Part shown: piece by piece, positions 184 to 12,400 of the stretch
Layout: every line of letters begins with the position of its first letter
Numbering within the stretch: the first letter of the stretch is position 1
Assembly: GCA_003559395.1 (NCBI GenBank)
Contig: PWLL01000014.1
Span: forward strand, 1 to 14,543
Length of the DNA: 14,543 nucleotides
From: Candidatus Iainarchaeum sp.
Lineage (GTDB): Archaea; Iainarchaeota; Iainarchaeia; Iainarchaeales; CSSED10-239
Reading direction: 5' to 3'
Program-made: the position numbers and the translations under genes
Notes under the pieces: model-generated
The model's input: only the letters and a program-made list of their open reading frames with translations
What the model was told of the DNA's origin: nothing
The model's database searches: none

Positions 184-1266
184 TCACATCGACAACAAAT
201 CTTTCTCAAAATTCAAAAAAATCTTTCTTTTTCTTCCTTTGCCTGTATTTATTTCTTCTATTCTTAAAATATTCTGTTTTTCAAACAAAGAAAGATATCT
301 TCTTGCACTTCTTTCAGAAACGATTTGTTTTTTATAAAGTTCAGAAGTTAACATTCCATCTTCTATATTTTTTAAAAAAACCATTTGTTCTTCAGAAAGA
401 AAAGATTTTTTTTCAGAAAACTTAATAGAGTCTATTAATTTTGCAGCTTCTAAAAGATTTTTTTTACTTATCTTTAAAGAGCCTTGTTTTTCAGAAAGCT
501 TTGCTGATTTATATAGAAGGTCAATAGCAATTCGTGCATCCCCTCCTCTTTTTGCAGAAAAACCAGCAACATATCCAATAAAGTCATCAGAAATAACATC
601 TTTAATCAAACCATACTCAACTCTTTCTTTTAATATTTCTTTAAGTTGTTTTGGAGAATATCTAGAAAAAGGAACATTATTTAAAAATAAAGAGCTTTGT
701 GTTCTGGCATCTAGATTTAAGAAAAAGTTTTTATTTTTTGTAATCAAGATTAAACAAAACCTGTTTTTATTTTCAGAAACACGAGATAGATCATATAGGA
801 TTTCAGAACAAGCATCTGAGGATATTTGATCTATTTCATCAATAACAATAATTGGTGTAAAAGAAGCTTTTGAAAGACTTTCTTTTATTCTTTGAAAAAT
901 CTCATCTACAGCAAGCCCTCTTCTAGGAAGAACAATATCAAACAAAAGAGCGATTTTGTGTAAGATAGAATGTTTGGTTTTGTCTGAAATTGCATTAATG
1001 TAGAGGAATTTTATGTTTGAGCTATAACTAATAAGATGATTTAGAATAAATTTAGTTACAAGTGTCTTACCTGTGCCAGGAGGCCCGTAAATAAGAACAT
1101 CTTGTGCTTTTTTCTTTGTTATTAATGGGGACAACAGGTGTTTTATTTCACTTGTTTCTCTCTCTCTTGCATGAATCTCTTCAGGACAATAATCTATATC
1201 AAAAACAGATTCATCTTTAAACAAAGTGTTTATTTTTTTTGAATCTGCGAATATGTTTTTTTTCAA
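184..1266 (-). CDS. cdc6: Orc1/Cdc6 replication initiator (AAA+ domain plus C-terminal winged helix)
   Basis: N-terminal LFKDESVFDIDYCPEEIHARERE matches the Cdc6 pattern (..L..dYvPe.l.hRe.E). Walker A is YGPPGTGKT and Walker B is IVIDEID. GGDARIAIDLL is the sensor-2 region and is followed by a winged-helix-like tail. There is no in-frame ATG upstream of the conserved N-terminus, so initiation must be at TTG (1264-1266), two codons after an in-frame TGA. Confidence 0.93.
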   Translation of the reverse strand: MKKNIFADSKKINTLFKDESVFDIDYCPEEIHARERETSEIKHLLSPLITKKKAQDVLIYGPPGTGKTLVTKFILNHLISYSSNIKFLYINAISDKTKHSILHKIALLFDIVLPRRGLAVDEIFQRIKESLSKASFTPIIVIDEIDQISSDACSEILYDLSRVSENKNRFCLILITKNKNFFLNLDARTQSSLFLNNVPFSRYSPKQLKEILKERVEYGLIKDVISDDFIGYVAGFSAKRGGDARIAIDLLYKSAKLSEKQGSLKISKKNLLEAAKLIDSIKFSEKKSFLSEEQMVFLKNIEDGMLTSELYKKQIVSERSARRYLSLFEKQNILRIEEINTGKGRKRKIFLNFEKDLLSM

Positions 1267-1391: not shown

Positions 1392-2549
1392 TTATGCTTT
1401 TTCTAAATTATATAGCTTTTTTATTTCTTCTATAGTAAGTGCTCTATCATATATTCTAAGTTCATCAACAACACCATTAATTGCTCTTTCAAATGTTGTT
1501 GTGTAACCCCATTTTCCAACAAATATATTTCTATTGCTAAAATTATATTTTATCTCTTTAGAAACTTCTTCATAATTTCTTAAGATACCATCTACATAAA
1601 ATTTTGTTTTTTGTCCGTCATAAGTTGCAACCAAATGATACCATATATTTTCACTTACTGTAACATCATCTGCAAAAATTTGTGAACGTGTATCATCTGT
1701 AAATGATAAATAAAAACCAAATTTGCCTATATTTTCTTGATGTCTTATTATCCATGAATGATAAACAGGCCCTCCGGCCCTAGCTTTACTTAGTATCATG
1801 TTTCCTGTAGAATGGCTGCCAGCACCTTTAATTTTTACCCACAAAGACAAACTAATATTATTTACGTCATAAATAGAGTTATCTCCTAAATCAATATAAG
1901 TATTGATGCCATCATATTTATATGCTTGTCCAACAACTCCATCAACCATTGTTGCGCCCTGAACCGTGCCATGATTTTGATGTTGTGAAGAATCCTTTAC
2001 ATCACCTTCAAACTTCCACCAACCAACTAAACCACACAAAAAATTATCAACTTTTGATAAATCATTTTGAATTACATTTACTCTTATATACGCATTATTT
2101 TCTGTAATAAGATTTACTCTAAAACTAGTTTCTGGAAAACAATCAAGTCTGAAAATTTCTGTTGAGTTTGAAGATAGATAAATAGGTTCTTCTAGATCAA
2201 ACGTTTTATTGTGTAAAGAATCAAAAGAAATATGATCTTTAGAAGGCATGATCTGATAACCAACAATGTTTGCATCTTCTGAAGGATGACTGTTGGCTAA
2301 AGTTACAAAGTTTCCAGAAACTCTTTGAGAAGTAACAAAGCCAGTTAGATTAGATGTAGAAAAGATATCTTCTGTTTCTTTTGTTCTCTCTGTTAAAAAA
2401 TCTGTTCCCCAGCCTAACAAAAGACCAACTAAAGCAACAACGATGACGATCAATAAGATACTTGCGATTAATGGAGAGATGGTTTTTTTGGAAATTTTTC
2501 TTAGTTTAAGTCTATCTTTAAACATTGGGTTTCTTTTTCTTAAGGACAT
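1392..2549 (-). CDS. Pilin-like protein: archaeal class III (prepilin) signal and hydrophobic N-terminus fused to a C-terminal LamG/concanavalin-A-like lectin domain
   Basis: The N-terminus ...KISKKT-ISPLIASILLIVIVVALVGLLLGWGTDF shares its pattern with the three pilins at 5883-7315. The C-terminal ~210 aa carry Laminin_G_3 hallmarks: GLVGWWKFEGDVKDSS.H.NHGTV.GA..V.GVVGQAYKYDG.NTYIDLG, ISLSLWVK, WYHLVATYDGQKTKFYVDG and GVVDELRIYDRALTIEEIKKLY. The start is uncertain: Met1 at 2549 or Met9 at 2525. Confidence 0.85.
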   Translation of the reverse strand: MSLRKRNPMFKDRLKLRKISKKTISPLIASILLIVIVVALVGLLLGWGTDFLTERTKETEDIFSTSNLTGFVTSQRVSGNFVTLANSHPSEDANIVGYQIMPSKDHISFDSLHNKTFDLEEPIYLSSNSTEIFRLDCFPETSFRVNLITENNAYIRVNVIQNDLSKVDNFLCGLVGWWKFEGDVKDSSQHQNHGTVQGATMVDGVVGQAYKYDGINTYIDLGDNSIYDVNNISLSLWVKIKGAGSHSTGNMILSKARAGGPVYHSWIIRHQENIGKFGFYLSFTDDTRSQIFADDVTVSENIWYHLVATYDGQKTKFYVDGILRNYEEVSKEIKYNFSNRNIFVGKWGYTTTFERAINGVVDELRIYDRALTIEEIKKLYNLEKA

Positions 2550-2550
2550 A

Positions 2551-2562
2551 ACAATATATTGT
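2551..2562. promoter_or_regulatory. Perfect 12-bp palindrome ACAATATATTGT next to the pilin-LamG start codon
   Basis: It lies 1 nt upstream of the ATG at 2549 (minus strand). It sits between that start and a TATA-like TTTTTTAAAGG element (rc of 2568-2578). This is an operator-like position if the mRNA is leaderless. Confidence 0.3.
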
Positions 2563-2707
2563 CTAAAACCTTTAAAAAACTAACGATTCTTTATTTTTGT
2601 GCACATATTTTGCACTGGCCACCAACCCTCTTACAAAACAAACCCCCTTTCTGAAGACCTTATTATTTTAGAAACAATTTTAAAAAAATAAAAAAAGGGT
2701 GATATAT

Positions 2708-2884
2708 ATGCAAATAATAGATAAAAAAAGCTTATGTGAATTTCAAACAAGCTTCTTAATAAAAATAAAACACACGATCCTTAAAAGAATAGAAACAGAA
2801 AAAGAAATAAACAAACCACATACAAGAATGCTATTTGACGTTTTGTCTGAGCTAGATAATAGAAGAATTGATTTTTCTTCTTAA
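2708..2884 (+). CDS. Small hypothetical protein (58 aa from the ATG), possibly a ribbon-helix-helix-like regulator
   Basis: The ORF track begins at GTG 2699, but ATG 2708 has a GGGTGA Shine-Dalgarno-like element (2697-2702) 5 nt upstream. It sits in the largest intergenic region, between divergent pilus-related genes. The pattern KKSLCEFQTS (strand) - FLIKIKHTILKRIE (helix) - KPHTRMLFDVLSEL (helix) loosely resembles CopG/Arc-type RHH proteins. Coding status is unproven. Confidence 0.3.
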   Translation: MQIIDKKSLCEFQTSFLIKIKHTILKRIETEKEINKPHTRMLFDVLSELDNRRIDFSS

Positions 2885-2920
2885 TTTTTTTCTTAAAATT
2901 ACAAAAAATACAAAAAATAA

Positions 2921-2929
2921 AAATATATA
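2921..2929 (+). promoter_or_regulatory. TATA-box-like element for the four-gene pseudopilin-like cassette
   Basis: AAATATATA is centred ~26-29 nt upstream of the TTG/ATG at 2951/2954, which is the spacing expected for a leaderless or near-leaderless archaeal mRNA. It is preceded by a 2 x 9-bp tandem ACAAAAAAT (2901-2918). AT-rich background makes chance matches likely. Confidence 0.3.
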
Positions 2930-2953
2930 CAAAGAAAACAAAAACATTGTTTG

Positions 2954-3445
2954 ATGACAAAACAAAAAGGGTTTTTTAGTATAATAACATTAATGTATAT
3001 TTTAATAATAATAGTAACAACAGAAACAATCACACCACAACTACTAGAAATAGGAACAATGACACTTGCAGAAACACAAAAACAATCAAAAATAATAACA
3101 ATAGAACAGATTATAGAAAATAATCTTGATAACGATATTGAAAATACCTTTATTCTAAAACAAATGATTAATCTTAACTTGATTGCTTTTTTTGAAGAAA
3201 ACCCTCTTTTTGTTTATAACATAATAGATAAACAAAAACAAGAACTTACTTTTGAAAAACTAGACGAACTTTCTAACGTTATTGTCTATAAACCATCAAA
3301 ACATATGCTCATAAAAATATACACAATAACAAACGGTCGTGACAAAAACAAATTTGTTTCTGTAAACCTAAAAAACATAAACTATAAAACTTCTTTTCTT
3401 TTTCCAGAAGGATATACTAAAAGAGTGATTGTTTATAAGCTGTAA
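2954..3445 (+). CDS. Orphan prepilin/pseudopilin-like protein 1 (K-G-hydrophobic N-terminus)
   Basis: N-terminus is M(M)TKQKG-FFSIITLMYILIIIVTT: a short basic leader, then Lys-Gly, then a ~20-aa hydrophobic helix, which is class III signal-like. ATG is at 2954 (TTG at 2951). It is the first gene of a four-gene overlapping cassette. I recognise no family for the remainder. Confidence 0.6.
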   Translation: MTKQKGFFSIITLMYILIIIVTTETITPQLLEIGTMTLAETQKQSKIITIEQIIENNLDNDIENTFILKQMINLNLIAFFEENPLFVYNIIDKQKQELTFEKLDELSNVIVYKPSKHMLIKIYTITNGRDKNKFVSVNLKNINYKTSFLFPEGYTKRVIVYKL

Positions 3446-3665
3446 AGGTGTTTTATCTTTAGAGTTTTTATTCTTTCTTATGATCTTGTTAATGATTATT
3501 GGTTTGTTAATAAACCTTAACACAACAATAGTAAAAGGAATAGAAACACAAGAAATAGAAAAAGAATATATAAACAATATAAAAAACATAAAAAACGAAC
3601 ACTTAGAAAAAATAAACGGTGCTTTTTTTGAAAAAAATATCCAAAGGCCAAATTTTTATTTATGA
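3429..3665 (+). CDS. Orphan prepilin/pseudopilin-like protein 2 (78 aa)
   Basis: N-terminus is MFISCKG-VLSLEFLFFLMILLMIIGLL, with Gly followed by a hydrophobic segment and Glu at +5, as in bacterial type IV pilins and pseudopilins. The only possible start before the KG motif is TTG 3429, directly after an in-frame TGA. It overlaps the upstream gene by 17 nt. Confidence 0.5.
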   Translation: MFISCKGVLSLEFLFFLMILLMIIGLLINLNTTIVKGIETQEIEKEYINNIKNIKNEHLEKINGAFFEKNIQRPNFYL

Positions 3666-4020
3666 AATATTCATTATCTTACTGGTTGTGATTCTTATAA
3701 TATTTATACAACTACAAATAATCAACAACTATTTTTCAGAAATAAAAACAGAAACAAAAGAAACAAAGATTCTAGAAGAAATCTTGTTTGTTGAAACCCT
3801 GATCTCTGATTGTGAATTTCTTGCAAACCAAAAACAAAAAATTTGCTATAAAAATAATATTTCTTTTAATGAAGATATAGAATATAAAAAACACAACCTA
3901 ACAACAATAACAATCAACAACAAAGAATATTATAAATCTGGAGAAAAAAACCGTTGTTATAAAAGAGGAGTCATCTATAAAAGAGCTTTTGCTTTATTAG
4001 AGGTTTGTTATGAAAGATAA
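3619..4020 (+). CDS. Orphan prepilin/pseudopilin-like protein 3 (133 aa, four Cys)
   Basis: N-terminus is MLFLKKISKG-QIFIYEIFIILLVVILIIF, with an acidic residue at +6. The start is GTG 3619 (or TTG 3628) and overlaps the upstream gene. Cysteines are arranged C-x10-C ... C-x17-C. Confidence 0.55.
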   Translation: MLFLKKISKGQIFIYEIFIILLVVILIIFIQLQIINNYFSEIKTETKETKILEEILFVETLISDCEFLANQKQKICYKNNISFNEDIEYKKHNLTTITINNKEYYKSGEKNRCYKRGVIYKRAFALLEVCYER

Positions 4021-4363
4021 AGGTTTTTTTCTTATTGTTGATGTGATGATTGCATTAATAATGATTAGTTTGTTATTAAATCTAACATATGACTCCCACA
4101 CCTACAAAGAATATGAAAGAATAATAATTACTCAACAAATAAATGACCTATTGTTAACGTCTCAACAACAAAGCCTAACATTAAAAGAAATTACAGAAAA
4201 CGCAAAACTTCTTTTACCCCACAGAAGAATAAAAATAAAACATAATCAAAAAATAACTGAAATTAATAAAAATTTAAGATTTACAGAGAAAATCTCAAAT
4301 TCCATAAGATATATTAATAGTTCTAACAAAGAAATATATATAGAGGTAATTGTTTTTTATTAA
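4010..4363 (+). CDS. Orphan prepilin/pseudopilin-like protein 4 (117 aa)
   Basis: N-terminus MKDKG-FFLIVDVMIALIMISLLL strongly resembles the bacterial KGFTLIE-type prepilin N-terminus (Asp at +6). The ATG start overlaps the upstream gene by 11 nt. Confidence 0.6.
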   Translation: MKDKGFFLIVDVMIALIMISLLLNLTYDSHTYKEYERIIITQQINDLLLTSQQQSLTLKEITENAKLLLPHRRIKIKHNQKITEINKNLRFTEKISNSIRYINSSNKEIYIEVIVFY

Positions 4364-4383
4364 ATTTTAAAATAAGAGAATAT

Positions 4384-5115
4384 ATGTTTTACATAATCGG
4401 AATAGGACTACATCCTAAACAAATAACAAAAGAAGCTTTAGAAATTATTTCTTCTTGTGATAACGTGTATATAGACAACTACACAAACCAGTTCTCTTAT
4501 GGCAATACAAAAGACCTAGAAGAAATTATACAAAAAAAAATAAGCGTGCTTAACAGAGAAGAACTTGAACAAGAACAAGAGTTTATAAAAGATAATTGTT
4601 GTTTGTTAGTGATTGGAAATCCCTTATCTGCAACAACACATTTTACTTTGATAGAAGATGCAAATAAAAAAAACATTTCTACAAAAATAATTCCAGGCAT
4701 TTCTATCTTTAACTATAGAGGCGCAAGTGGTTTATCAGAATATAAGTTTGGAAAAACAACAAGTATTGTATTTCCTGAAAAAAACTATTTTCCTAAAAGT
4801 TTTTATGAAACAATTATAAACAATCTTAAAAACGAAGCCCACACCCTATGTTTGTTAGATATAAAAACTAAACAAAAAAAACTCATGAATGTTTTTGAAG
4901 CCTGTGAGATTCTTGAAAAAATTGATACACAAAAACTACTTGAAAATAAACCATGTGTTTTGTTAGCAGGAATGGGTTCTTTTAAAGAAAAAATAACCTC
5001 TTTTATTTTTAAAGATTATAAAAAAATAGAAGGGTCTGTTTATCCACAATCTTTAATAATCTGTTCTTCACTTAATAATATTGAGCAGGAGGCATTAAAT
5101 GAACACAGACAATAA
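4384..5115 (+). CDS. dph5: Diphthine synthase (tetrapyrrole-methylase fold, EF-2 diphthamide pathway)
   Basis: MFYIIGIGL....IT.EALEII..CD.VY.D.YT, GNPLSATTH, IPGISIF, YKFGKTTSIVFPE.NYFP.SFYE.I..N and HTLCLLDIK closely track archaeal Dph5 (for example the Pyrococcus sequence MVLYFIGLGL.., GDPLVATTH, YKFGKSATV.., HTLLFLDIK). Confidence 0.92.
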   Translation: MFYIIGIGLHPKQITKEALEIISSCDNVYIDNYTNQFSYGNTKDLEEIIQKKISVLNREELEQEQEFIKDNCCLLVIGNPLSATTHFTLIEDANKKNISTKIIPGISIFNYRGASGLSEYKFGKTTSIVFPEKNYFPKSFYETIINNLKNEAHTLCLLDIKTKQKKLMNVFEACEILEKIDTQKLLENKPCVLLAGMGSFKEKITSFIFKDYKKIEGSVYPQSLIICSSLNNIEQEALNEHRQ

Positions 5116-5386
5116 AGAATATTCTTTAAAATATAAAAACTTGCTTGAAAAAGCACATAAAACAATAAAGATAAACATACAAAATGATTCTTTCTTAAAA
5201 GAAGTTGCAGAAGATTTTTTATCAATGAGTAAAAACTATCTAAACGATGGCAAACACTTTGAAGACAAAAAAGACTATTCAAGAGCGCTTGCTTGTTTCT
5301 CTTATGCTTATGGATGGGTTGATGCCGGGGTTAGACTTGGTTTGTTTTATGGCATAGATAGAGATATGTTTACTCTATATAAATAA
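5099..5386 (+). CDS. Small helical archaeal protein, DUF357-like
   Basis: 95 aa. The motif YSRALACFSYAYGWVDAGVRLGLF resembles, from my memory, the conserved core of the archaeal DUF357 family. It overlaps dph5 by 17 nt. The family assignment was not verified. Confidence 0.5.
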   Translation: MNTDNKEYSLKYKNLLEKAHKTIKINIQNDSFLKEVAEDFLSMSKNYLNDGKHFEDKKDYSRALACFSYAYGWVDAGVRLGLFYGIDRDMFTLYK

Positions 5387-5388
5387 AT

Positions 5389-5886
5389 GTGAAAAAAATG
5401 ATTGTAAAGCTAGAAAATGATTTTTGTAAAATAGAAAATAATAATCTTAAAAGCCAGTTAACAAAAAAAGGAATTGGTTTTAAAAAAGAACTTGATTTCT
5501 ATATAGATCTTTATGAAACTTTTTACCTTTTTTGTAAAAACAAAATAACTGTTAAAAAAGATTCTAAAAACCTATCTAAAAAAGAAATATTAGAGATTTG
5601 TAAAAAAAACATAAAAGATTTTGAAAATAAATTCCTCGTCTATGAAGATTTGAAAAATCAAGGATATATTGTTAAAGATGGCACTAGTTTTGGTTTTGAT
5701 TTTAGAGTTTATAAGAACAAAAACGAACATACAGAGTTTGTAGTCGATGTAATCAAAAGTCAAAAAGATACTATAAACAAAATAATAAAATCAGAAAGAC
5801 TTGCAACAACTATAAACGCAAAATGCGTTTTAGCAATCGTTAGTTTAGAAAAAAAAATAATAAAAATAAAAATAGAAAAACTCTAA
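5389..5886 (+). CDS. endA: tRNA-splicing endonuclease, short catalytic-type subunit
   Basis: VYEDLKNQGYIVKDGTSFGFDFRVYKNKNEHTEFVV....RLATTINAKCVLAIV aligns with M. jannaschii EndA (VYKDLRTRGYIVKTGLKYGADFRLYE...HS.YLV...RVAHSVRKKLLIAIV). The Tyr/His/Lys catalytic residues are all present. The start is GTG 5389 or ATG 5398. Confidence 0.88.
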   Translation: MKKMIVKLENDFCKIENNNLKSQLTKKGIGFKKELDFYIDLYETFYLFCKNKITVKKDSKNLSKKEILEICKKNIKDFENKFLVYEDLKNQGYIVKDGTSFGFDFRVYKNKNEHTEFVVDVIKSQKDTINKIIKSERLATTINAKCVLAIVSLEKKIIKIKIEKL

Positions 5887-6338
5887 TTTTCTCTGCAAGT
5901 AACACTTCTTTGAACATTTGGACATAAACTAGGATTTATTTTTAATGTTGTTGGATTTGTAAAACTTTCAAGGTTTTCAATAGTAGCAGTTGTTGATACT
6001 CCCACACTTAAAGAATTAGTATCAAAATCAACTTCTGTTGTAAGAAAATTATCATCTCTATCTGTTATTACTGCATAGAATTTGTTTCTTTCTGGAAAAT
6101 CCAAATTACCTGTATTTGTTAAAATTACAAACATTTCATTTAATGATGGATAAAAACTACAAGAAGTAATTTTTATATCTGCACCCATACAACTAAAATC
6201 AATTGCATCATCTGCAGTATCTGTGCTACGTCTAACAAAATCAACACCCCAGTTAAGCACCAACGCAGTTATAGCAACTACAACTACGATTAACAAAATA
6301 GTGGCAATAACTGGGGATACTGATTTTTGTTTGTTCAT
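5883..6338 (-). CDS. Archaeal type IV pilin paralog C (class III signal peptide)
   Basis: N-terminus MNKQKS-VSPVIATILLIVVVVAITALVLNWG is of the archaeal pilin N-terminal domain type. There are four Cys: C-x9-C and a C-terminal C-P-x7-C. It starts 12 nt after pilin B, and its stop overlaps the endA stop on the other strand. Confidence 0.85.
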   Translation of the reverse strand: MNKQKSVSPVIATILLIVVVVAITALVLNWGVDFVRRSTDTADDAIDFSCMGADIKITSCSFYPSLNEMFVILTNTGNLDFPERNKFYAVITDRDDNFLTTEVDFDTNSLSVGVSTTATIENLESFTNPTTLKINPSLCPNVQRSVTCREN

Positions 6339-6350
6339 TTATTACACAAT

Positions 6351-6809
6351 TTAACTACATGTTTTTACAACATATCCATCTGATGGACAATCTTGTGCTT
6401 TTACTCTAACTTCGTACTCGTTTTCAGTAATATTCTCGTTTTCAATAGATATTGCTGCTGACTGACCAGGGTTTAACAACTCTAATGCTGAACCTCCGGA
6501 GTTAAGATCAGTTACTGAAATTAAATCGTTTCCAGAACTCAAGTCTGCATCAAATCCTGTAGAATGTACATATGATCCACTTCTATTTCTTAGGATCATT
6601 GATAAAACATTTCCATCTACTGAACAACTATCTATTGCTAGAGTTCCAATTGCTTCGTTACAAGCGCCACCAGCCATACCATCAGCGTCTGCTAATGCGT
6701 CTGTTGCAAAGTCTCTACCCCATGTCAAAACAACTGCGACAAGAATAACAGCCACAACAATTAATAAAATTGTTGCAATTAATGGTGAAACTGCTTTTTT
6801 TGAATTCAT
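6351..6809 (-). CDS. Archaeal type IV pilin paralog B (probable major pilin)
   Basis: N-terminus is MNSKKA-VSPLIATILLIVVAVILVAVVLTWG. The four Cys follow the same pattern (C-x11-C; C-P-x8-C). It has the only perfect GGAGG Shine-Dalgarno in the window, 7 nt upstream of its ATG. It is Gly/Ala/Ser/Asp-rich and visibly less AT-rich than its neighbours. Confidence 0.88.
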   Translation of the reverse strand: MNSKKAVSPLIATILLIVVAVILVAVVLTWGRDFATDALADADGMAGGACNEAIGTLAIDSCSVDGNVLSMILRNRSGSYVHSTGFDADLSSGNDLISVTDLNSGGSALELLNPGQSAAISIENENITENEYEVRVKAQDCPSDGYVVKTCS

Positions 6810-6816
6810 TATATTT

Positions 6817-6821
6817 CCTCC
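6817..6821 (-). promoter_or_regulatory. Shine-Dalgarno element (GGAGG) of pilin B
   Basis: The minus strand reads AAGGAGGAAATATA-ATG, with 7 nt between GGAGG and the start codon. Other genes here show only partial (GAGGT, GAGGA, GGGTGA) or no SD elements. Confidence 0.7.
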
Positions 6822-6841
6822 TTAATTTGTATTAAGATTTA

Positions 6842-7315
6842 TTAACGACAAGTTGCTGTCGTAAATTGATCTGGACAAGAATCTACAAAAATTCTTGTTC
6901 TAACAGGACTTTCAAGTCCTTCAAAGTCTTCTGGATCGTTTGGATCTTCAAAGTTTATTGATCTTATTTGCATGGCTCTGTTTGTAAATGCTGTTTCTAA
7001 TGCGGCTGTAGCTATATCTCCGTTTGCATCTGTTACTAGTATGTTTAATTTATCATTTATTTCAACTGTTGAATTATCCATAAGAACTAATGATAGACCA
7101 GTTGAAGGATCGTAACTACAACCAGTATCAATATTAATTCTTACATAATTACACTCACCCCATGCTTCTGTGGTTTCTGTAATTGACTCTGTTGTTTCTC
7201 TCGCACTTTGAGAAGACCAAGAATATAAAATACCTGCTAATGATAAAGCAACTGCAACTAACAAAATAGTTGCAATCAATGGCGAAACTGCCTTAGATTT
7301 TTTTTTTAATATCAT
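6842..7315 (-). CDS. Archaeal type IV pilin paralog A
   Basis: N-terminus is MILKKKSKA-VSPLIATILLVAVALSLAGILYSW. The four Cys follow the same pattern (C-x10-C; C-P-x8-C). It is preceded by a 2 x 23-bp tandem repeat in its promoter region. Confidence 0.87.
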   Translation of the reverse strand: MILKKKSKAVSPLIATILLVAVALSLAGILYSWSSQSARETTESITETTEAWGECNYVRINIDTGCSYDPSTGLSLVLMDNSTVEINDKLNILVTDANGDIATAALETAFTNRAMQIRSINFEDPNDPEDFEGLESPVRTRIFVDSCPDQFTTATCR

Positions 7316-7327
7316 AAATCTCTAACT

Positions 7328-7373
7328 TTTAATTTATTATTTATCTTATTTTTAATTTATTATTTATCTTATT
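7328..7373 (-). repeat. Perfect 2 x 23-bp tandem direct repeat in the pilin A promoter region
   Basis: tttaatttattatttatcttatt occurs at 7328-7350 and again at 7351-7373. On the coding (minus) strand this reads AATAAGATAAATAATAAATTAAA x2, ending 12 nt upstream of the pilin A ATG. Each unit contains TATA-box-like sequence. Confidence 0.9.
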
Positions 7374-7408
7374 TCTTATATATATGTATTACACAAATAT
7401 TTATAAAC

Positions 7409-7430
7409 GTTTGTTATTTATTAAACAAAC
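7409..7430 (-). terminator. 7-bp-stem hairpin just downstream of the FlaJ-like gene stop
   Basis: gtttgtt (7409-7415) and aacaaac (7424-7430) are perfectly complementary, with an 8-nt loop. The hairpin begins 6 nt after the TAA at 7437-7439 (minus strand) and is followed by U-rich sequence. The stem is weak and AU-rich. Confidence 0.3.
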
Positions 7431-7436
7431 AATTTT

Positions 7437-8252
7437 TTAAACAATAAACAATAATGACACCACCACATATACAGGAATAGAAACACACAACAAAATTATC
7501 GAATGTTTGATGCCCGCAGTCGCACTACCTTCTGAGATTTTACCAATTACGGGCCCTGCAAAACCTCCCTGAATAACTAAAAGATACAAAAAATATGTGT
7601 TAAAGTTAACTTCCTCCATAGAGGTGTCTCCGCCTGTAGCCCCTGCAAGTTCTGTTGTTGTTAACATTGGCAAAAACACAATTTGAATAATTAATATAAT
7701 AGCAATAAAAACAAAAAACATAAAATATGAAGAAAAAACAGAAGTAAATGTTTTTGATTTCCTTTCTTCTGTCATTTCATTTATTGTTTTTACATAACCA
7801 GAAACAGAAGAAAAAATCTTAATTAAATTTCCTCCGTATTTTGTACTTTCTGAAATTACTTCTGCAGATTTTGCAAACATAGGACTATCGATTTCTGAGA
7901 AAATGTTTACTAGTGCTTGGTCAAAAGGGATCCCTATTTTTACTTGTGCAGCTAATCGTTTTACTTCTGTATTTAAAGAACCATAATTGTTATCACACAA
8001 AATCTCCATAGAAGTAACTATATTCATTCCACCTCTTAAAAGGTCTTTTAGATCTTCTAAGAAAACAAACAGATTTTGTTCATAGGACTTAATTTTTGCA
8101 GTATATATTCCTGCAGCAATTCCAACACTTACTACAAAAGGAAAAATAGAAAAAACAAACAAATTAGTATTGAACAATAAAATTGCTGCAATTATTGAGC
8201 CAATTGCGCCCTTGATCGCAAAGCCCTTTATATATTTTAATCTTTTGTTCAT
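7437..8252 (-). CDS. FlaJ/PilC/TadC-like polytopic membrane protein with a single T2SS-F-type domain (platform, second half)
   Basis: N-terminal TM helices are followed by a cytoplasmic helical domain (FLEDLKDLLRGGMNIVTSMEIL...LNTEVKRLAAQVKIGIPFDQALVN....SPMFAKSAEVISESTKYGGNLIKIF) and then C-terminal TM helices. This is the T2SSF-domain architecture. Confidence 0.75.
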   Translation of the reverse strand: MNKRLKYIKGFAIKGAIGSIIAAILLFNTNLFVFSIFPFVVSVGIAAGIYTAKIKSYEQNLFVFLEDLKDLLRGGMNIVTSMEILCDNNYGSLNTEVKRLAAQVKIGIPFDQALVNIFSEIDSPMFAKSAEVISESTKYGGNLIKIFSSVSGYVKTINEMTEERKSKTFTSVFSSYFMFFVFIAIILIIQIVFLPMLTTTELAGATGGDTSMEEVNFNTYFLYLLVIQGGFAGPVIGKISEGSATAGIKHSIILLCVSIPVYVVVSLLFIV

Positions 8253-8264
8253 ATTTTATTTCCT

Positions 8265-9152
8265 CTACGAAAGCATTTGTAATAAAACTAAAAAAATTAT
8301 ATTTACTACAGGTATTAAAAAAAATATTCCTATTAACATTAAAGCAGACACACTAAGCCCGCCAATAGCAGTGCCTCCAATCATTCCTAACAACATTATG
8401 GTTGAAAACAAAAACAATGGACCAGCAATAACAACAGCAGAATAAATGTCTCCAAAAGTTTCTGCTTTTTTATTCATTTTATCAAGCATAAGGTTGTACA
8501 TAAACTGAGCATGTTCTGCTTTCTTTTTCATAAAATCAGAAATGGACCCACCTGCTTGTATATTTGACTTAAGTTCTCTTAAAAACTTTTTAAGTTCTAA
8601 AGAAGGTGTTTTTTCTGAAACAATATCTATGGCCTCTAGTAAAGAAATTCCTAAATTGTCTATATAGTGTGTAAGTTTATTAAGTTCCTTATTAACATAT
8701 GGCGTTTCTTTACTTATTGAAGCTGTATGAAACATAGCTTCTGGTGGTGCACCAGATTCAGCAATACTTGACATACTTAATATAGATAAAGAAAAATTAT
8801 TTTTTATTTGTTCTGTTTTTGTCATAACATCAATATATGGTTTAACCATTGCGTAAATAATCACACCTAAAAAAACAAAAATACCAATAATAAATAAAAT
8901 AAAAATATCTTCTAAAGAATTAGTTACAACTAAAAACAGACTTCCAAAAAACAACAACAAAATAGTTGCAAACACAGCAAAAAAAAGATATTTGGACATA
9001 TAATAATCAAGATCATCTAGATTATCTGATTGTTGCAATTTGAGTTCTATTTCTGGAATTTGAATTTTTTTAGTAATAGGCATAAATAACGTATACATCT
9101 GTTCTTCAAACTTATCTGGTTTCTTTTTTGGAATTGTCTTTTCTTTTTTCAT
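8265..9152 (-). CDS. FlaJ/PilC/TadB-like polytopic membrane protein with a single T2SS-F-type domain (platform, first half)
   Basis: TM helices are followed by LSILSMSSIAESGAPPEAMFHTAS....YVNKELNKLTHYIDNLGISLLEAIDIVSEKTPSLELKKFLRELKSNIQAGGSISDFM and then further TM helices, which is the typical FlaJ/TadB cytoplasmic domain pattern. It lies 12 nt upstream of the second half-gene. Confidence 0.78.
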   Translation of the reverse strand: MKKEKTIPKKKPDKFEEQMYTLFMPITKKIQIPEIELKLQQSDNLDDLDYYMSKYLFFAVFATILLLFFGSLFLVVTNSLEDIFILFIIGIFVFLGVIIYAMVKPYIDVMTKTEQIKNNFSLSILSMSSIAESGAPPEAMFHTASISKETPYVNKELNKLTHYIDNLGISLLEAIDIVSEKTPSLELKKFLRELKSNIQAGGSISDFMKKKAEHAQFMYNLMLDKMNKKAETFGDIYSAVVIAGPLFLFSTIMLLGMIGGTAIGGLSVSALMLIGIFFLIPVVNIIFLVLLQMLS

Positions 9153-9228: not shown

Positions 9229-10335
9229 CTACATCAAAAACTCAACAATATCTTTATTTTTAAGAATATAATTTTTAGAAACTTTTTGACCATTATACTT
9301 AGAACTACCCCAAACTCTTGCAGATTTAAGATTCTTATAAATCGTTTTATGTATATCTTTTGAAGCATCCATAACAGTTGAATTGTTATCTAAAACTAAT
9401 GGTTCTTTTACATCTGCTTTTTTACCTGGTTTTTTTGTATAAACAACAATTTTATCTAGCATATAAAAGATTTCATCTGTTAGATCTTCTTTTTCTTCTA
9501 AATCATAGATTTTTATTTTTTTATAAATATTTGTTTTTTTTTTAATATTGTTAATAGGCAAAGATACACAAATCGCTTTCATATACTTTGCTCTTGGATT
9601 TATTAATAACAACAAATCGTCCATATCTATTTTTTGATTTAAAATAAAGGTATGTGATCTATATCCTGAATCTCTTAAAAGATTTATTGCTTTTTGTTTA
9701 TCTATTAAAAGATTATGTTGATTAACAAAAGAGACGCCAACAAAATCACTTTTTACAATCTTTACATTTGGTCTTTTTTTAGTTAAATAAACATCTTGTT
9801 TTTCTAAGTTTTCTAACAACAAATCTATTTGATAAAATTGACAATCACTAATAACCAACACTAAAGCATCTGCAACTCTTATCATCGAATAAACTTGAGA
9901 CATTAGTTCTCCACCATCTAGAAAAGAAGGGAGTTCTACTAGCTGAATGTGTGCACCTCCATAATTTAAGGTGCCAATCTCTGGTTTAGTGGTTGTAAAA
10001 GGGTACGCTGCAATTTCTGGTTTTGCATTTGTTATTTCTGCTAAAAAAGTGCTTTTTCCAGAATTTGGCAAACCTACCACCAAAACCTGACCAGCTCCTT
10101 CTTTTTTAATATTTATTGTATGTCCTGTTTTTTTTGCAGCTTGTGTTTGTTTTTCCATCTTTGATTTTAAACTTGCAATCTTTCTACTAAGATCTTTTCT
10201 TAGATTTTCTGCACCTTTATGAGAGGGGGCTGTAGAAAGCATTTCTTGCAAGCCAATTAACTTTTCATCATTAGTTTGTGCTTCTTCATACTTTTTTTTT
10301 GCATTTGCAAATTCATAATTTACGTTTGCGGGCAT
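9229..10335 (-). CDS. DRG/Obg-like GTP-binding protein with C-terminal TGS domain; G3 and G4 motifs are non-canonical
   Basis: G1 is VGLPNSGKSTFL and G2 is YPFTTTKPEIG. An S5D2L-like insert (LTKKRPNVKIVK...) and a TGS-like tail (VYTKKPGKKAD..EPLVL...STV.D....IHK.....LK.ARVWG.S....GQKV....IL...DIVE) are both present. G3 reads VELPS instead of DxPG, and no NKxD occurs at the aligned G4 position. Confidence 0.85.
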   Translation of the reverse strand: MPANVNYEFANAKKKYEEAQTNDEKLIGLQEMLSTAPSHKGAENLRKDLSRKIASLKSKMEKQTQAAKKTGHTINIKKEGAGQVLVVGLPNSGKSTFLAEITNAKPEIAAYPFTTTKPEIGTLNYGGAHIQLVELPSFLDGGELMSQVYSMIRVADALVLVISDCQFYQIDLLLENLEKQDVYLTKKRPNVKIVKSDFVGVSFVNQHNLLIDKQKAINLLRDSGYRSHTFILNQKIDMDDLLLLINPRAKYMKAICVSLPINNIKKKTNIYKKIKIYDLEEKEDLTDEIFYMLDKIVVYTKKPGKKADVKEPLVLDNNSTVMDASKDIHKTIYKNLKSARVWGSSKYNGQKVSKNYILKNKDIVEFLM

Positions 10336-10348
10336 GGTTAGTTTTACC

Positions 10349-10960
10349 TCATTTAAGAATTTTTAAAATTAACAATTCTTCAAAAAACAATTTTTTTTTA
10401 TTTATTATTTTTACAGAAAATTCTTTTTTTATATTTTTGATAATTCTTTCAGGATTATTTAAAGAAGAAATCAAAAGATAACAAACCCCTTCTTTTTCTA
10501 AAAACTTATTAAGATTTTTAAGAAACTGATCTATTATTTCCGAACCTTCTTTTCCTCCATCTGTTGCTATTGCTTCTTTATCTTTTAGATTTATTTTTTC
10601 TGAAGGAACATATGGGGGATTAAAAACAATCACATCATATTTTTTATTTATGTTTGTAAAAAGATTTGATTTTATAACGTTTATGTTTAAGTTTTCTTTA
10701 TCTACTAAATTTTTAAAATAATCAATCACATCTTCGTTAATATCACAACAATCAACCATGTTAATTTTCTTAGAAAGATAAAGAGAGATTATGCCTGATC
10801 CAAAACCAAGCTCAAGGGTGTTTTTATAATTATTTAAAGCTTCTTTTTTTAAAGCATCTAACAAAAGAAAAGTATCATCTGAAGGAAGATAACAGGTTTT
10901 TGGTAGATTTAAAGAATAATCGTCATATCTGTATATTGTTTTTAAAGTTGTTTCTTGCAT
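10349..10960 (-). CDS. HemK/Mtq2-type SAM-dependent N5-glutamine methyltransferase
   Basis: CYLPSDDTFLLLDAL, SAM motif I LELGFGSGIISL, CCDIN and the catalytic motif IVFNPPYVPS are present. The ~200-aa length is typical of archaeal Mtq2 homologs. Confidence 0.85.
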   Translation of the reverse strand: MQETTLKTIYRYDDYSLNLPKTCYLPSDDTFLLLDALKKEALNNYKNTLELGFGSGIISLYLSKKINMVDCCDINEDVIDYFKNLVDKENLNINVIKSNLFTNINKKYDVIVFNPPYVPSEKINLKDKEAIATDGGKEGSEIIDQFLKNLNKFLEKEGVCYLLISSLNNPERIIKNIKKEFSVKIINKKKLFFEELLILKILK

Positions 10961-11048: not shown

Positions 11049-11777
11049 ATGAGTAAAAAATATATAGACGTACACACACACTATGCCTTCAAAGACTATG
11101 AAGATCTTAAAAAAATTTATGAAACAGAAAATATAGTTGGCTTGTGTTCAAGCACAGACCTTCATTCATATAAAGATTTAGAAAAACTAAAAGAAAAAAA
11201 CATAAACAACCTTTTCTTTTCCCATGGCCTTTATCCAGACGTACTTAATAACAAAACCCTTGAAGAATGTTATAAAGAGCTAGACCAAATAGATTTTTCA
11301 AAAGGTATAGCTATAGGAGAAATAGGTCTTGATAACAAAATAACAAAAGACAAACAAAAAAGAGAAGAACAGAAAAAACTCTTTGAAAAACAATTAGAAA
11401 TTGCAGAGTCTAAAAAACTACCAGTTGTTGTTCATAGCAGATATGCAAGCAAACACGTTCTAGAAACCCTCACAAACTTCAAAATACCAACTATTCTTCA
11501 TTGGTTCTCAGGAACAGACAAAGAAATTGATGAAGCTTTTTCTAGAGGTTATTTTCTTTCTCTTAACTATGATAGAACAAAAGTAAACATAACAGAAGAA
11601 AATATAAACCAAATATTTATAGAAACAGATTATCCTATACCTTACAACAACAAAACTAACATTCTTAATATTAAAGAAGCCTACAAAATAGTAGCATATA
11701 AAAACAGTTTGAATATTAATTATTTACAAGAGAAAATACAAGAAAACTTTTATAGACTATTTAAGATAAAAATATGA
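11049..11777 (+). CDS. tatD: TatD-family metal-dependent hydrolase/DNase
   Basis: IDVHTHY, AIGEIGLD, the QKKLFEKQLEIA helix, PVVVHSR, ILHWFSG and FIETDYP together form the TatD amidohydrolase metal-ligand series. Confidence 0.88.
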   Translation: MSKKYIDVHTHYAFKDYEDLKKIYETENIVGLCSSTDLHSYKDLEKLKEKNINNLFFSHGLYPDVLNNKTLEECYKELDQIDFSKGIAIGEIGLDNKITKDKQKREEQKKLFEKQLEIAESKKLPVVVHSRYASKHVLETLTNFKIPTILHWFSGTDKEIDEAFSRGYFLSLNYDRTKVNITEENINQIFIETDYPIPYNNKTNILNIKEAYKIVAYKNSLNINYLQEKIQENFYRLFKIKI

Positions 11778-11783
11778 ACTTTT

Positions 11784-12395
11784 ATGAAATTTAAAAAACA
11801 AGAACTAAATGATTTGTTAATAGCTTGGTTAGGGATATCTGTATGTTTCACTATTATCTTAGGCGGATATAGTTTATTGCTAGGAGATTTAATACCAATA
11901 ATAAAAGGAGAAATTCCTTTTAGTTTTATATCTTTTTTAACTTTATTATTTGTTAGTTTGATAGTTACTGGTTCTTCTTTTATCTTACACGAACTAGCAC
12001 ACAAATATGTTGCAATTTACTATGGAGCAAAAGCAAGGTTTGTTATGTGGATTCAATATATTGTTGGAGCGATCTTTGTTTCTTTCTTTTTAGGGTTTAT
12101 ATTTATTGCTCCAGGAGCAGTATATATTTATGGAAAACAAGTATCTATTAAAGAAAACGCAATCATTTCTTTAGCAGGCCCACTAACAAACATAATAGTT
12201 GCTTTTTTGTTTTTAGTAAGTGCTCTTTTTGGAATGCCTGGTTTAATCGTGGCTTTAGGTTTTCAAATAAACCTATGGATTGCTTTTTTTAATCTTTTAC
12301 CAATAGGTCCTTTAGATGGAAAAAAGATAATGATGTGGAGTCCATTGATTTGGGGAATTATGATTGCAATTCCTGTGGTAATTATATTTTTTTAA
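11784..12395 (+). CDS. Peptidase M50 (site-2 protease-like) minimal membrane metalloprotease
   Basis: HELAHK (HExxH) lies within a TM segment, followed by the downstream FFNLLPIGPLDGKK motif. The protein is polytopic and has no PDZ or CBS insert. Confidence 0.88.
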   Translation: MKFKKQELNDLLIAWLGISVCFTIILGGYSLLLGDLIPIIKGEIPFSFISFLTLLFVSLIVTGSSFILHELAHKYVAIYYGAKARFVMWIQYIVGAIFVSFFLGFIFIAPGAVYIYGKQVSIKENAIISLAGPLTNIIVAFLFLVSALFGMPGLIVALGFQINLWIAFFNLLPIGPLDGKKIMMWSPLIWGIMIAIPVVIIFF

Positions 12396-12400
12396 AAAAA

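Follow-up and report, generated by a model that had tools for sequence, protein, structure and literature searches.

Ten genes for pilus-type components lie between positions 1392 and 9152 of the 14,543-nucleotide stretch of DNA analysed here (the window). They raise the question of whether they form a surface system of unusual composition with no secretion ATPase or prepilin peptidase nearby, as proposed in an earlier note, or one part of a machine whose other parts are encoded elsewhere. The organism, taken in that note for a reduced archaeon, is a member of a small-genome DPANN lineage, and all ten genes were found where the note had placed them: two single-domain T2SSF platform genes (F1 and F2) and, alongside this pair, eight pilin-type genes, namely three tandem pilins (p1–p3), a pilin-LamG fusion and the ORFs s1–s4. 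From 2951 to 5886 the packing is as tight as described, with neighbouring genes overlapping or ≤20 nt apart, but the statement that all spacers are ≤76 nt fails because gaps of 121 nt (F2 to p1) and 149 nt (LamG-pilin to the next gene) exist. When a simple class III signal filter was applied to the window ORFs of ≥50 aa, eight of the 35 passed, comprising seven pilin candidates and the N-terminus of one platform gene, whereas 200 shuffles of the window gave a mean of 0.19 passes and a maximum of 2. Membership in unrelated protein families was ruled out for seven of the ten genes.

Platform genes and full-size pilins

F1 (8265–9152, minus strand, 295 aa) and F2 (7437–8252, minus strand, 271 aa) each contain one T2SSF domain, found as a single Pfam match (3.5e-10 and 40.3 bits for F1, 1.1e-15 and 58.1 bits for F2; cut-off 25.2). 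F1 covers positions 7–239 and F2 positions 304–546 of the 555 in the ArlJ/FlaJ model; because they align to opposite halves, they are true half-size genes, equivalent to the N- and C-terminal halves of FlaJ/TadC, and together they make up a membrane platform of the FlaJ/TadC type. Orthologues of F1 in 10 genomes show 56–62% identity, and the homologues of F2 form 62 clusters (58–100% identity), nearly all of 269–293 aa.

Three archaeal type IV pilins, p1 (6842–7315, 157 aa), p2 (6351–6809, 152 aa) and p3 (5883–6338, 151 aa), follow on the minus strand in a tandem, duplication-prone array, and match the archaellin/pilin N-terminal model TIGR02537 at 37.1, 28.2 and 20.2 bits, respectively (cut-off 20). 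The most conserved of them is p1 (orthologues 41–56% identical), which contains four conserved cysteines and for which AF2 gave a low-confidence model (pLDDT 62) of a helix (residues 12–39) followed by an eight-strand beta domain. The paralogue p2 occupies a variable middle position, represented by one to three copies in the relatives (26–41% identity), and the related loci carry three to five pilins in total; p3, last in the array, has an orthologue kept in the relatives with the pattern SP[IV]IATILL...SWGQNF.

The fusion gene (1392–2549, minus strand, 385 aa) encodes a pilin N-terminus (TIGR02537, 21.3 bits; cut-off 20), a beta-rich middle and a C-terminal lectin-like domain (Laminin_G_3, 82.8 bits), and its product is a candidate adhesin pilin. 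It is missing at the equivalent position in all 13 related loci, and was seen in no related locus examined. The NCBIfam model of TafC, a component of the Tat-dependent fimbriae ('tafi') of Haloarcula hispanica (PMC11821415), aligns to its residues 78–382 (5.5e-12), probably because both proteins contain lectin-like beta-sandwich domains; membership in TafC was rejected, as the score was 45.5 bits (cut-off, 410) and the N-terminus is of the class III pilin type, not a Tat signal.

The s1–s4 cassette

The four overlapping genes s1–s4 form a conserved plus-strand cassette with prepilin-type N-termini, each consisting of K-G and then 20 hydrophobic residues. The class III-signal-like proteins s1 (2951–3445, 164 aa), s3 (3619–4020, 133 aa) and s4 (4010–4363, 117 aa) are candidate minor pilins. 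The first has K-[GA] before F and no acidic residue in the helix, and both its N-terminus and its C-terminal region are conserved in 12 orthologues (alignment A4); s3 has K-[GA] before Q, with Q(+1) invariant in 12 orthologues (alignment A6) and Asp/Glu at +6; and s4 has K-G before F/Q, with an invariant Asp at +6 (alignment A7). The remaining member, s2 (3429–3665, 78 aa), is a class III signal peptide protein with K-G before xxSxE and Glu at +5; K and E(+5) are invariant and G nearly so in 10 orthologues (alignment A5). It is a candidate minor pilin too, or possibly the major one, the latter role being known for small proteins of ~70 aa in Methanococcus-type systems (PMC4858521).

Family searches matched TadF in six of the 10 s2 orthologues (best 0.0018) and Class_IIIsignal in four (best 1.5e-4), while the window s2 matched ComGE below the cut-off (2.5e-5) and s4 matched ComGD weakly (0.0097). 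No family or PDB match was obtained for s1, no family match in any of 12 orthologues each of s3 and s4, and no family, PDB or fold match beyond the N-terminus for any of these three. A single-sequence AF2 model of s4 (pLDDT 63) showed a 52-residue N-terminal helix and then strands; neither this model nor that of p1, both of low confidence, gave specific fold matches. The pilin label of s1–s4 is thus a putative one, drawn mainly from N-terminal motifs: of the four proteins called prepilin-like in the earlier note, s2 alone gained a weak family match, and s1, s3 and s4 keep the name by motif and context.

An alternative is that s1–s4 act outside any pilus, as unrelated small signal-anchored membrane proteins sharing an operon with dph5, DUF357 and endA. 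The missing matches of s1, s3 and s4 point in this direction, as do the location of the cassette on the strand opposite to the platform, with three housekeeping genes between, and a profile comparison in which the resemblance to class III ORFs of canonical pilus operons was limited to the first 15–30 residues. However, all four proteins have a short basic leader with G/A at -1, all except s1 have a conserved acidic residue at +5/+6, this pattern holds in 10–12 orthologues, and four consecutive class III-like ORFs contrast with the 0.19 expected per shuffled window; the TadF, Class_IIIsignal and ComGE/ComGD matches argue the same way, and this alternative seems unlikely. Four-member sets of minor (pseudo)pilins are familiar from bacterial T2SS, T4P and Com systems (GspH-K, FimU-PilVWX and ComGD-G), and these also contain one member without the conserved acidic residue. 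Like them, s1–s4 are a run of four short, overlapping genes whose products start with prepilin leaders, s1 being the member without the acidic residue; s4 and s2 have weak ComGD and ComGE matches, respectively, although no homology is detectable beyond the N-terminal helix. By analogy, s1–s4 might serve as a priming or tip complex.

The distant motor ATPase

The order CDC48-M50-TatD-MTS-DRG-F1-F2-pilins-endA-DUF357-dph5-s4-s3-s2-s1-sORF-Orc1 recurs, with the ORFs intact, in 13 related contigs (F2 identity 63–79%), which carry the whole 14-kb order and no ATPase; the neighbourhood is thus conserved. The reported lack of a secretion ATPase and a peptidase nearby was borne out: no window ORF matched T2SSE or A24, tblastn of the window with three DPANN ATPases gave a best E of 0.68, the hydrophobic window ORFs contained no GxGD motif, and in none of the 13 relatives is either enzyme encoded less than 10 kb from the platform. 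In two relatives, however, the contig with the platform locus also encodes a FlaI-family ATPase (P0446 and P0447), at a distance of ~65 kb and ~231 kb, respectively. These ATPases belong to a second conserved locus, which also holds a large LamG/DUF2341 adhesin-like surface protein and two pilin-like genes, a120 and a166, and which was found on 38 further metagenome contigs, none with F1/F2. One of these 38, L050, comes from the metagenome sample that also gave the window; it has a GC content of 27.8% (window, 28.2%), and the ATPase it encodes shares 86% identity with the ATPase of a MAG that is one of the window's two closest relatives by F2 (77%). The ATPase of the window organism can thus be inferred from its relatives and from L050, whose origin in the same cell is unproven. 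The ATPase is accordingly not missing: in relatives, and in the window's own sample, it lies at this second locus.

In about 25 loci of more distant DPANN, such as those of Pacearchaeota BPGA01000001.1 (L007) and the Iainarchaeum-labelled contig JAWALG010000009.1 (L023), the ATPase, F1 and F2 are always adjacent and class III signal ORFs flank them. As in the window, the platform consists of two single-domain genes, N-half then C-half, and SP[LV]IATxLL-type pilins are mixed with pilin-like proteins of the type K-G then Q/F...E; a platform split in two and an operon with both types of N-terminus are standard among the other DPANN loci retrieved, and the composition of the window is therefore not unusual. 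Split platforms have also been described in archaeal 'system 1' and some DPANN 4A systems (PMC4858521; bioRxiv 10.64898/2026.04.22.720090). The 87 fetched loci yielded no prepilin peptidase, and because none adjoins the ~25 canonical operons examined, its absence from the window is normal. The ATPases of the canonical operons are 39–53% identical to that of the present clade, which differs in an extra N-terminal extension of ~200 aa and in its location in a separate conserved locus 65–231 kb from the platform; the accessory pilin-like proteins are alike at their N-termini only. What sets this Iainarchaeota-labelled clade apart is solely that its ATPase and platform genes are unlinked.

Nature of the proposed filament machine

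We consider, with a probability of about 0.8, that a type IV pilus-like filament machine of this Iainarchaeota/Diapherotrites-labelled DPANN clade is encoded jointly by two or more loci, of which the window holds one. The pilus gene set is real and probably functional, and the distant ATPase locus together with the fairly ordinary pilus parts suggests a rearranged but familiar attachment machine, whose role in adhesion, uptake or motility can only be inferred. After insertion into the membrane, prepilins would be cleaved behind K-[G/A/S] by a class III signal peptidase encoded elsewhere, and an F1/F2 heterodimer, powered by the distant ATPase, would polymerise subunits of the p1–p3 type into a filament that s1–s4, as low-abundance minor pilins, may prime or cap. 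The lectin-like LamG-pilin in the window genome, and at the ATPase locus the LamG/DUF2341 protein, would mediate binding to surfaces or host cells. An ancestral ATPase-F1-F2 operon, as seen in all neighbouring lineages, may have been split once at the base of the clade, after which both pieces would have become fixed among housekeeping genes.

A real but non-adhesive type IV filament, such as a short pseudopilus for secretion, substrate binding (bindosome-like) or DNA uptake, is unlikely: the clade ATPase has a hit to the bindosome model BasE as well (214 bits, far short of the cut-off) and the cassette ORFs weakly resemble the competence pseudopilins ComGD and ComGE, but the loci encode tandem, duplication-prone full-size pilins with disulfide-type cysteines and lectin-like LamG/DUF2341 proteins, and neither class III-signal substrate-binding-protein domains nor DNA-binding/translocation genes were seen in them. 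That the window genes are decaying remnants, made redundant by a canonical operon elsewhere that is complete, platform and pilins included, is very improbable; the ATPase locus does have pilin-like genes and an adhesin-like protein of its own, but no T2SSF gene adjoins the ATPase in any of 40 clade loci, no long contig yielded more than one F2-type protein, and F1, F2, the pilins and s1–s4 remain intact and conserved between genomes that have diverged to ~60% identity, although a second platform of very divergent sequence may still exist in the clade. Least tenable, and already largely refuted, is the view, in line with the earlier note, of a self-contained surface system, unusual in composition, that works without dedicated FlaI/PilB and GxGD enzymes or borrows unrelated ones, since the absence of both from the vicinity of the platform is outweighed by the FlaI-family ATPase on contigs of two relatives and of the same sample, by the orthology of this ATPase to the platform-adjoining one of the closest outgroup (53% identity), and by the unlinked peptidase and matching composition of the canonical operons.

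Among known systems, the two-locus machine resembles archaeal TFF 'system 1' (clade 1), the Epd pilus of Methanococcus maripaludis (Makarova et al. 2016, PMC4858521; bioRxiv 10.64898/2026.04.22.720090), which has been reported in some DPANN, in its split platform, many minor pilins, class III pilins of ~70 aa, large DUF2341-type adhesin-like proteins and pilin genes outside the main locus. It differs in that the system 1 ATPase and platform genes are described as co-localised and in that an EppA-type dedicated peptidase was not seen in the loci here, and the platform-adjacent PilA/Pilin_N-type pilins are closer to euryarchaeal/halobacterial PilA sets. The bacterial Tad pilus (TadA ATPase, TadB and TadC platform, Flp and TadE/F pseudopilins) shares the two-protein platform and a small pilin with G then xxxxE, besides the weak TadF matches of the s2 orthologues. 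However, secretin, TadZ and TadD are all absent here, the lineage is archaeal, and the top-scoring models are archaeal too: ArlJ/UpsF for F1 and F2, and FlaI for the ATPase.

Directly upstream of the cassette lies a small ORF (sORF; 2699–2884, plus strand), absent from the gene list of the earlier note. Family searches gave no match; it encodes a conserved soluble protein of 51–64 aa, with orthologues in L003, L005, L014, L016, L020 and L022.

Gene content of the window

The window is 14.5 kb long, has a GC content of 28% (28.2%), and matches contigs of a soda-lake sediment metagenome (JGI 3300000563, SL_3KL_010_SED). Its genes encode, in order, Orc1/Cdc6 (184-1266, minus strand), a pilin-LamG fusion (LamG-pilin; 1392-2549, minus), a conserved small protein of 61 aa (sORF; 2699-2884, plus), four small proteins in overlapping ORFs, s1-s4 (2951-4363, plus), a dph5-like methylase, a DUF357 protein and a tRNA-splicing endonuclease (4384-5886, plus), the pilins p3, p2 and p1 (5883-7315, minus), the two T2SSF proteins F2 and F1 (7437-9152, minus), a DRG-type GTPase (9229-10335, minus), an NPPY methyltransferase (10349-10960, minus), and TatD, an M50 peptidase and CDC48 (11049-14542, mixed strands). 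Along the plus-strand run from 2951 to 5886 the gaps are 20 nt or less, as the earlier note had stated; its wider statement that all spacers are at most 76 nt is wrong, since F2 and p1 are 121 nt apart and LamG-pilin and sORF 149 nt. A crude class III filter was passed by eight of the 35 window ORFs (mean of 0.19 in shuffled sequence), and an Rfam search of the window gave no match. Exact look-ups with the window's Orc1 and CDC48 proteins gave no entry for either. No window ORF matched T2SSE or a prepilin peptidase; tblastn of the window with three DPANN ATPases was likewise negative, as was a scan for GxGD motifs. The window itself thus holds neither a FlaI/PilB-type ATPase nor a prepilin peptidase, just as had been noted.

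F1 (8265-9152, minus) and F2 (7437-8252, minus) show no mutual resemblance, and each contains a single T2SSF domain, which exceeds the Pfam cut-off. Together they span both halves of the ArlJ/FlaJ models, F1 the N-terminal and F2 the C-terminal half, and thus are real, half-size platform proteins. The VSP[LV]IATILL-type pilins and the pilin-LamG fusion are likewise genuine members of the pilin family, because TIGR02537, the curated archaellin/pilin N-terminal model, is above its cut-off for p1-p3 and for the N-terminus of LamG-pilin, and the LamG domain is unambiguous. All three tandem pilins have four cysteines in common, arranged as two pairs. The best conserved is p1 (orthologue identity 41-56%); related loci have three to five pilins in total, of which the middle copies are variable both in number and in sequence (26-41%), and the last pilin of the array keeps its SP[IV]IATILL...SWGQNF N-terminus across relatives, although its overall BLAST identity (31-41%) does not exceed theirs. 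The low-confidence AF2 model of p1 (pLDDT 62) has an N-terminal helix and a beta-sandwich without a specific structural match; Foldseek with this model and that of s4 (pLDDT 63) gave generic Ig-like matches or none. We favour p1-p3 over s2 as candidates for the major filament subunit because they form a tandem variable array behind a spacer of 121 nt, which could hold a separate promoter. In Methanococcus-type systems the major subunits are small pilins like s2 (PMC4858521).

LamG-pilin is absent from all 13 related loci, so at this position the gene has been inserted or lost. Its resemblance to TafC of the Tat-fimbriae of Haloarcula hispanica (NCBIfam) was rejected as an assignment, the score being 45.5 bits against an equivalog cut-off of 410 and the N-terminus being of the class III pilin type. 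Imperfect A/T-rich inverted repeats (71-76% complementary) at 1319-1394 and 2882-2946 flank the segment of LamG-pilin and sORF; as a meaningful element they were discounted, being likely a chance occurrence in DNA of 28% GC.

The platform block in relatives and in other DPANN archaea

F2 has 62 close cluster representatives (58-100% identity, nearly all 269-293 aa), several of them labelled Diapherotrites or Candidatus Iainarchaeum. Thirteen related contigs (ten of them from GTDB species genomes, the other three retrieved by exact look-up) share the whole block CDC48-M50-TatD-MTS-DRG-F1-F2-(3-5 pilins)-endA-DUF357-dph5-s4-s3-s2-s1-sORF-Orc1 with its genes intact, so that the neighbourhood, whose conservation the earlier note had raised, is kept in related genomes. 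Because the block is syntenic as a whole, the interleaving of pilus and housekeeping genes represents an inherited gene order and cannot be taken to show that they are functionally linked. In none of the 13 loci was an ATPase found near the platform, in flanks of up to 10 kb on each side.

About 25 more distant loci were compared, namely those of the closest outgroup (F2 37-39% identical, one contig labelled Ca. Iainarchaeum), Pacearchaeota, Woesearchaeota, Aenigmatarchaeota and others. In all of them a T2SSE ATPase directly adjoins the same two half-size platform genes, and this trio is flanked by class III-type ORFs of both kinds, SP[VI]IATxLL and K-G|Q/F...E; no GxGD peptidase was found in their flanks. 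DPANN pili thus normally have a split platform, prepilin N-termini of two kinds and an unlinked peptidase, and the composition that the earlier note regarded as non-canonical is standard. Euryarchaeal systems, too, commonly have two tadC genes and pilin genes that stand alone (PMC4858521), and a 2026 survey describes a platform split into two genes in "system 1" of methanogens and DPANN archaea and in some DPANN 4A systems (bioRxiv 10.64898/2026.04.22.720090). Many representatives of the 50%-identity clusters of the DPANN pilus ATPase (P0229-P0260) are 1,000-2,100 aa long and were matched by the 519-aa query in two to four separate stretches, which looks like insertion of inteins.

At one edge of the block, Orc1/Cdc6 is followed by PCNA, and several relatives have another Orc1/Cdc6 paralogue, of about 30% identity, at the opposite edge (regions concerned: 184-1266 of the window; 15879-17809 of locus L003; 1063-2271 and 16587-18540 of locus L006). 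These genes on both sides suggest that a replication origin may be close to the block. Beside PCNA, L003 has an extra Epd-like class III pair (17979-19105, minus), consisting of a 62-aa protein that exceeds the Pfam Class_IIIsignal cut-off and one of 143 aa with K-G|QISLEY, followed by a small HExxH membrane protein; the pilin genes of the clade (the Iainarchaeota- and Diapherotrites-labelled relatives of the window) are therefore scattered over more than two loci.

The distant ATPase locus and assignment of the system

Queries with Pacearchaeota ATPases gave 7,858 matches, the best 120 all from Pace/Nanoarchaeota, and the ATPase of the clade was not reached in this way. It was traced from the outgroup ATPase that adjoins its platform (locus L009), by way of a group of low-GC representatives, among them one with the label Diapherotrites, and a profile search based on this group. 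In two relatives the ATPase lies on the same contig as the platform, about 65 kb away in GCA_030154545.1 (contig JASEYN010000020.1) and about 231 kb away in JGI Ga0209340_1000002. A metagenome scan recovered the arrangement of the ATPase locus on 38 further contigs, never with F1/F2, and no T2SSF gene accompanies the ATPase in any of the 40 clade loci. For P0001 and P0514, whose contigs have the same length (7,907 bp), an adjacent ATPase was considered and rejected because the look-up led to an unrelated contig. One of the ATPase loci (L050, SL_3KL_010_SEDDRAFT_10020744; GC 27.8% versus 28.2%) comes from the window's own assembly; its ATPase shares 86% identity with that of NPIE01004678.1, part of a MAG that is among the closest relatives of the window (F2 77% identical). 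From these relatives and the same-sample contig we infer that the window's own genome encodes a FlaI/PilB-family ATPase. The apparent lack of an ATPase would be explained by its position at a locus apart from the platform, as seen in the two relatives and the 38 contigs.

The clade ATPase scores 108 bits with T2SSE and 317-331 bits with the FlaI model, and is a FlaI-family protein under the archaellum cut-off (550). It shares 53% identity with the ATPase of the outgroup, where ATPase and platform are still neighbours. Most simply, an ancestral ATPase-F1-F2 operon would have been broken once, at the base of the clade. The locus starts with a large protein of LamG or DUF2341 type that has a membrane helix at its N-terminus; then come Sec61beta (opposite strand), a304 (304-332 aa, membrane-anchored), a120 (120 aa, starting MxKS-x-E), a166 (160-170 aa, K-G|FTYII), a115cc (115 aa, coiled-coil) and the ATPase; on the other strand follow a448 (430-450 aa, secreted, with a Sec signal and a C-terminal anchor) and a328 (320-340 aa, a polytopic membrane protein). 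The protein upstream of the ATPase in relatives is of DUF2341 (655 aa) or Laminin_G_3 (961 aa) type and is absent from the window. For the six conserved, clade-specific genes (7815-14377 of L010; 7608-14564 of L012; 38 loci), a304, a120, a166, a115cc, a448 and a328, no family could be detected. A PibD/FlaK/EppA-type peptidase (two Asp, GxGD) was found neither in the window nor in any fetched locus by regular-expression and family searches, and a328 has no peptidase signature.

The window's genes belong to an archaeal type IV filament system whose platform is split, and such systems have been described before in DPANN archaea. The system has a T2SSF platform and filament subunits with a class III signal and a hydrophobic N-terminal helix, and a FlaI/PilB-family ATPase, for the window's own genome by inference. 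Co-localisation of ATPase and platform, which neighbourhood-based classification assumes, is lacking, the two being 65 and 231 kb apart. In the Epd-like archaeal system 1 the platform is likewise encoded by two genes (PMC4858521; 10.64898/2026.04.22.720090), as it is here by those of F1 and F2; a large DUF2341-type adhesin-like protein is likewise present at the ATPase locus of relatives, though not in the window. An archaellum was rejected, as F1 and F2 reach 47-80 bits with ArlJ models whose cut-offs are 400-570, and the ATPase 317-331 against 550; no other archaellum gene (ArlH, ArlF/G, ArlC/D/E or ArlX, archaellins) was found in the platform or the ATPase locus. A bacterial Tad pilus was dismissed, the best models being archaeal, the TadF matches weak and other Tad genes (secretin, TadZ/TadD) not found.

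The family identities and the two conserved loci are established here, with no second platform at the ATPase locus. In such a system the prepilins would be cleaved by an unlinked class III peptidase, the F1/F2 heterodimeric platform would be energised by the distant ATPase, the p-type pilins would build the filament with s1-s4 as minor pilins, and the LamG/DUF2341 proteins and the window-only LamG-pilin would determine which surface or partner cell is bound. A tentative joint reading, to which we give about three chances in ten, is that the pilus is permanently split in the clade into platform plus pilins and ATPase plus adhesin, with modules fixed in housekeeping operons (DRG GTPase-F1-F2; s1-s4-dph5-DUF357-endA, whose genes overlap or nearly abut) and parts made constitutively with the translation apparatus; s1-s4 and the six ATPase-locus proteins, clade-specific and without detectable relatives, would possibly be tuned to host attachment.

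The comparative data explain away the apparent lack of ATPase and peptidase. No new kind of machine is revealed by these genes; what they add is modest in detail, namely that ATPase and platform are separated throughout the clade and that accessory proteins are specific to it. Detection based on co-localisation could score the complete-looking pilus set of the clade as incomplete, because ATPase and platform are far apart, and surveys and annotation pipelines should rely on it with caution. A dependence on contact with other cells is assumed for DPANN archaea, with type IV pili as leading candidates for making that contact. Candidates for studies of attachment are p1, the variable middle pilins, LamG-pilin and the LamG/DUF2341 protein beside the ATPase.

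The s1-s4 cassette and neighbouring small elements

The N-terminus of all four cassette proteins consists of a short, basic leader, K-G and a hydrophobic stretch of about 20 residues, and alignments of 10-12 orthologues indicate that they are real, constrained proteins. The s1 orthologues (164-173 aa) have K-[GA]|F and no acidic residue; K-[GA] and an acidic residue are conserved in those of s2-s4. In s2 (68-84 aa) the K and Glu(+5) are invariant and the G nearly so, in s3 (about 135-149 aa) Gln(+1) is invariant and followed by Asp/Glu(+6), and in s4 (about 117-135 aa) Asp(+6) is invariant.

No family was above threshold for s1-s4. Weak matches (E >= 1.5e-4) linked s2 orthologues to Pfam TadF (six of ten) and Class_IIIsignal (four of ten), and the window's s2 and s4 weakly matched ComGE and ComGD, respectively. 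Beyond the N-terminus, nothing was matched by s1, s3 and s4 in Pfam, PDB profiles, hhalign or Foldseek on a low-confidence model; the s1-s4 profiles gave nothing below E = 0.1 against PDB sequences, and PHROGs nothing meaningful on the cassette. In hhalign comparisons with 86 class III ORFs from other loci, similarity outside the clade covered only the N-terminal 15-30 columns. Judged by motif and context, s1-s4 as a set are probably minor pilins and, by analogy with four-member bacterial minor-pilin sets, may prime or cap the filament.

Directly upstream of s1-s4, in the window and at least six relatives, sORF (2699-2884, plus) encodes a soluble protein of 51-64 aa with the motif LxDVLSELD that matched no family; it may act as a regulator or represent the first gene of the cassette operon. 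In the AT-rich intergenic DNA upstream of sORF is a GC-rich island (2600-2665; CACTGGCCACCAACCCTC...AAACCCCC; consensus GCACCGGCCACCnACCCTCC) without an Rfam match, which is conserved in four of five aligned loci (the window, L005, L006 and L014) and weakly in L003. Since in relatives it lies between the cassette and orc1/PCNA, this island may serve as a promoter element or an origin-recognition box, or may encode a small RNA.
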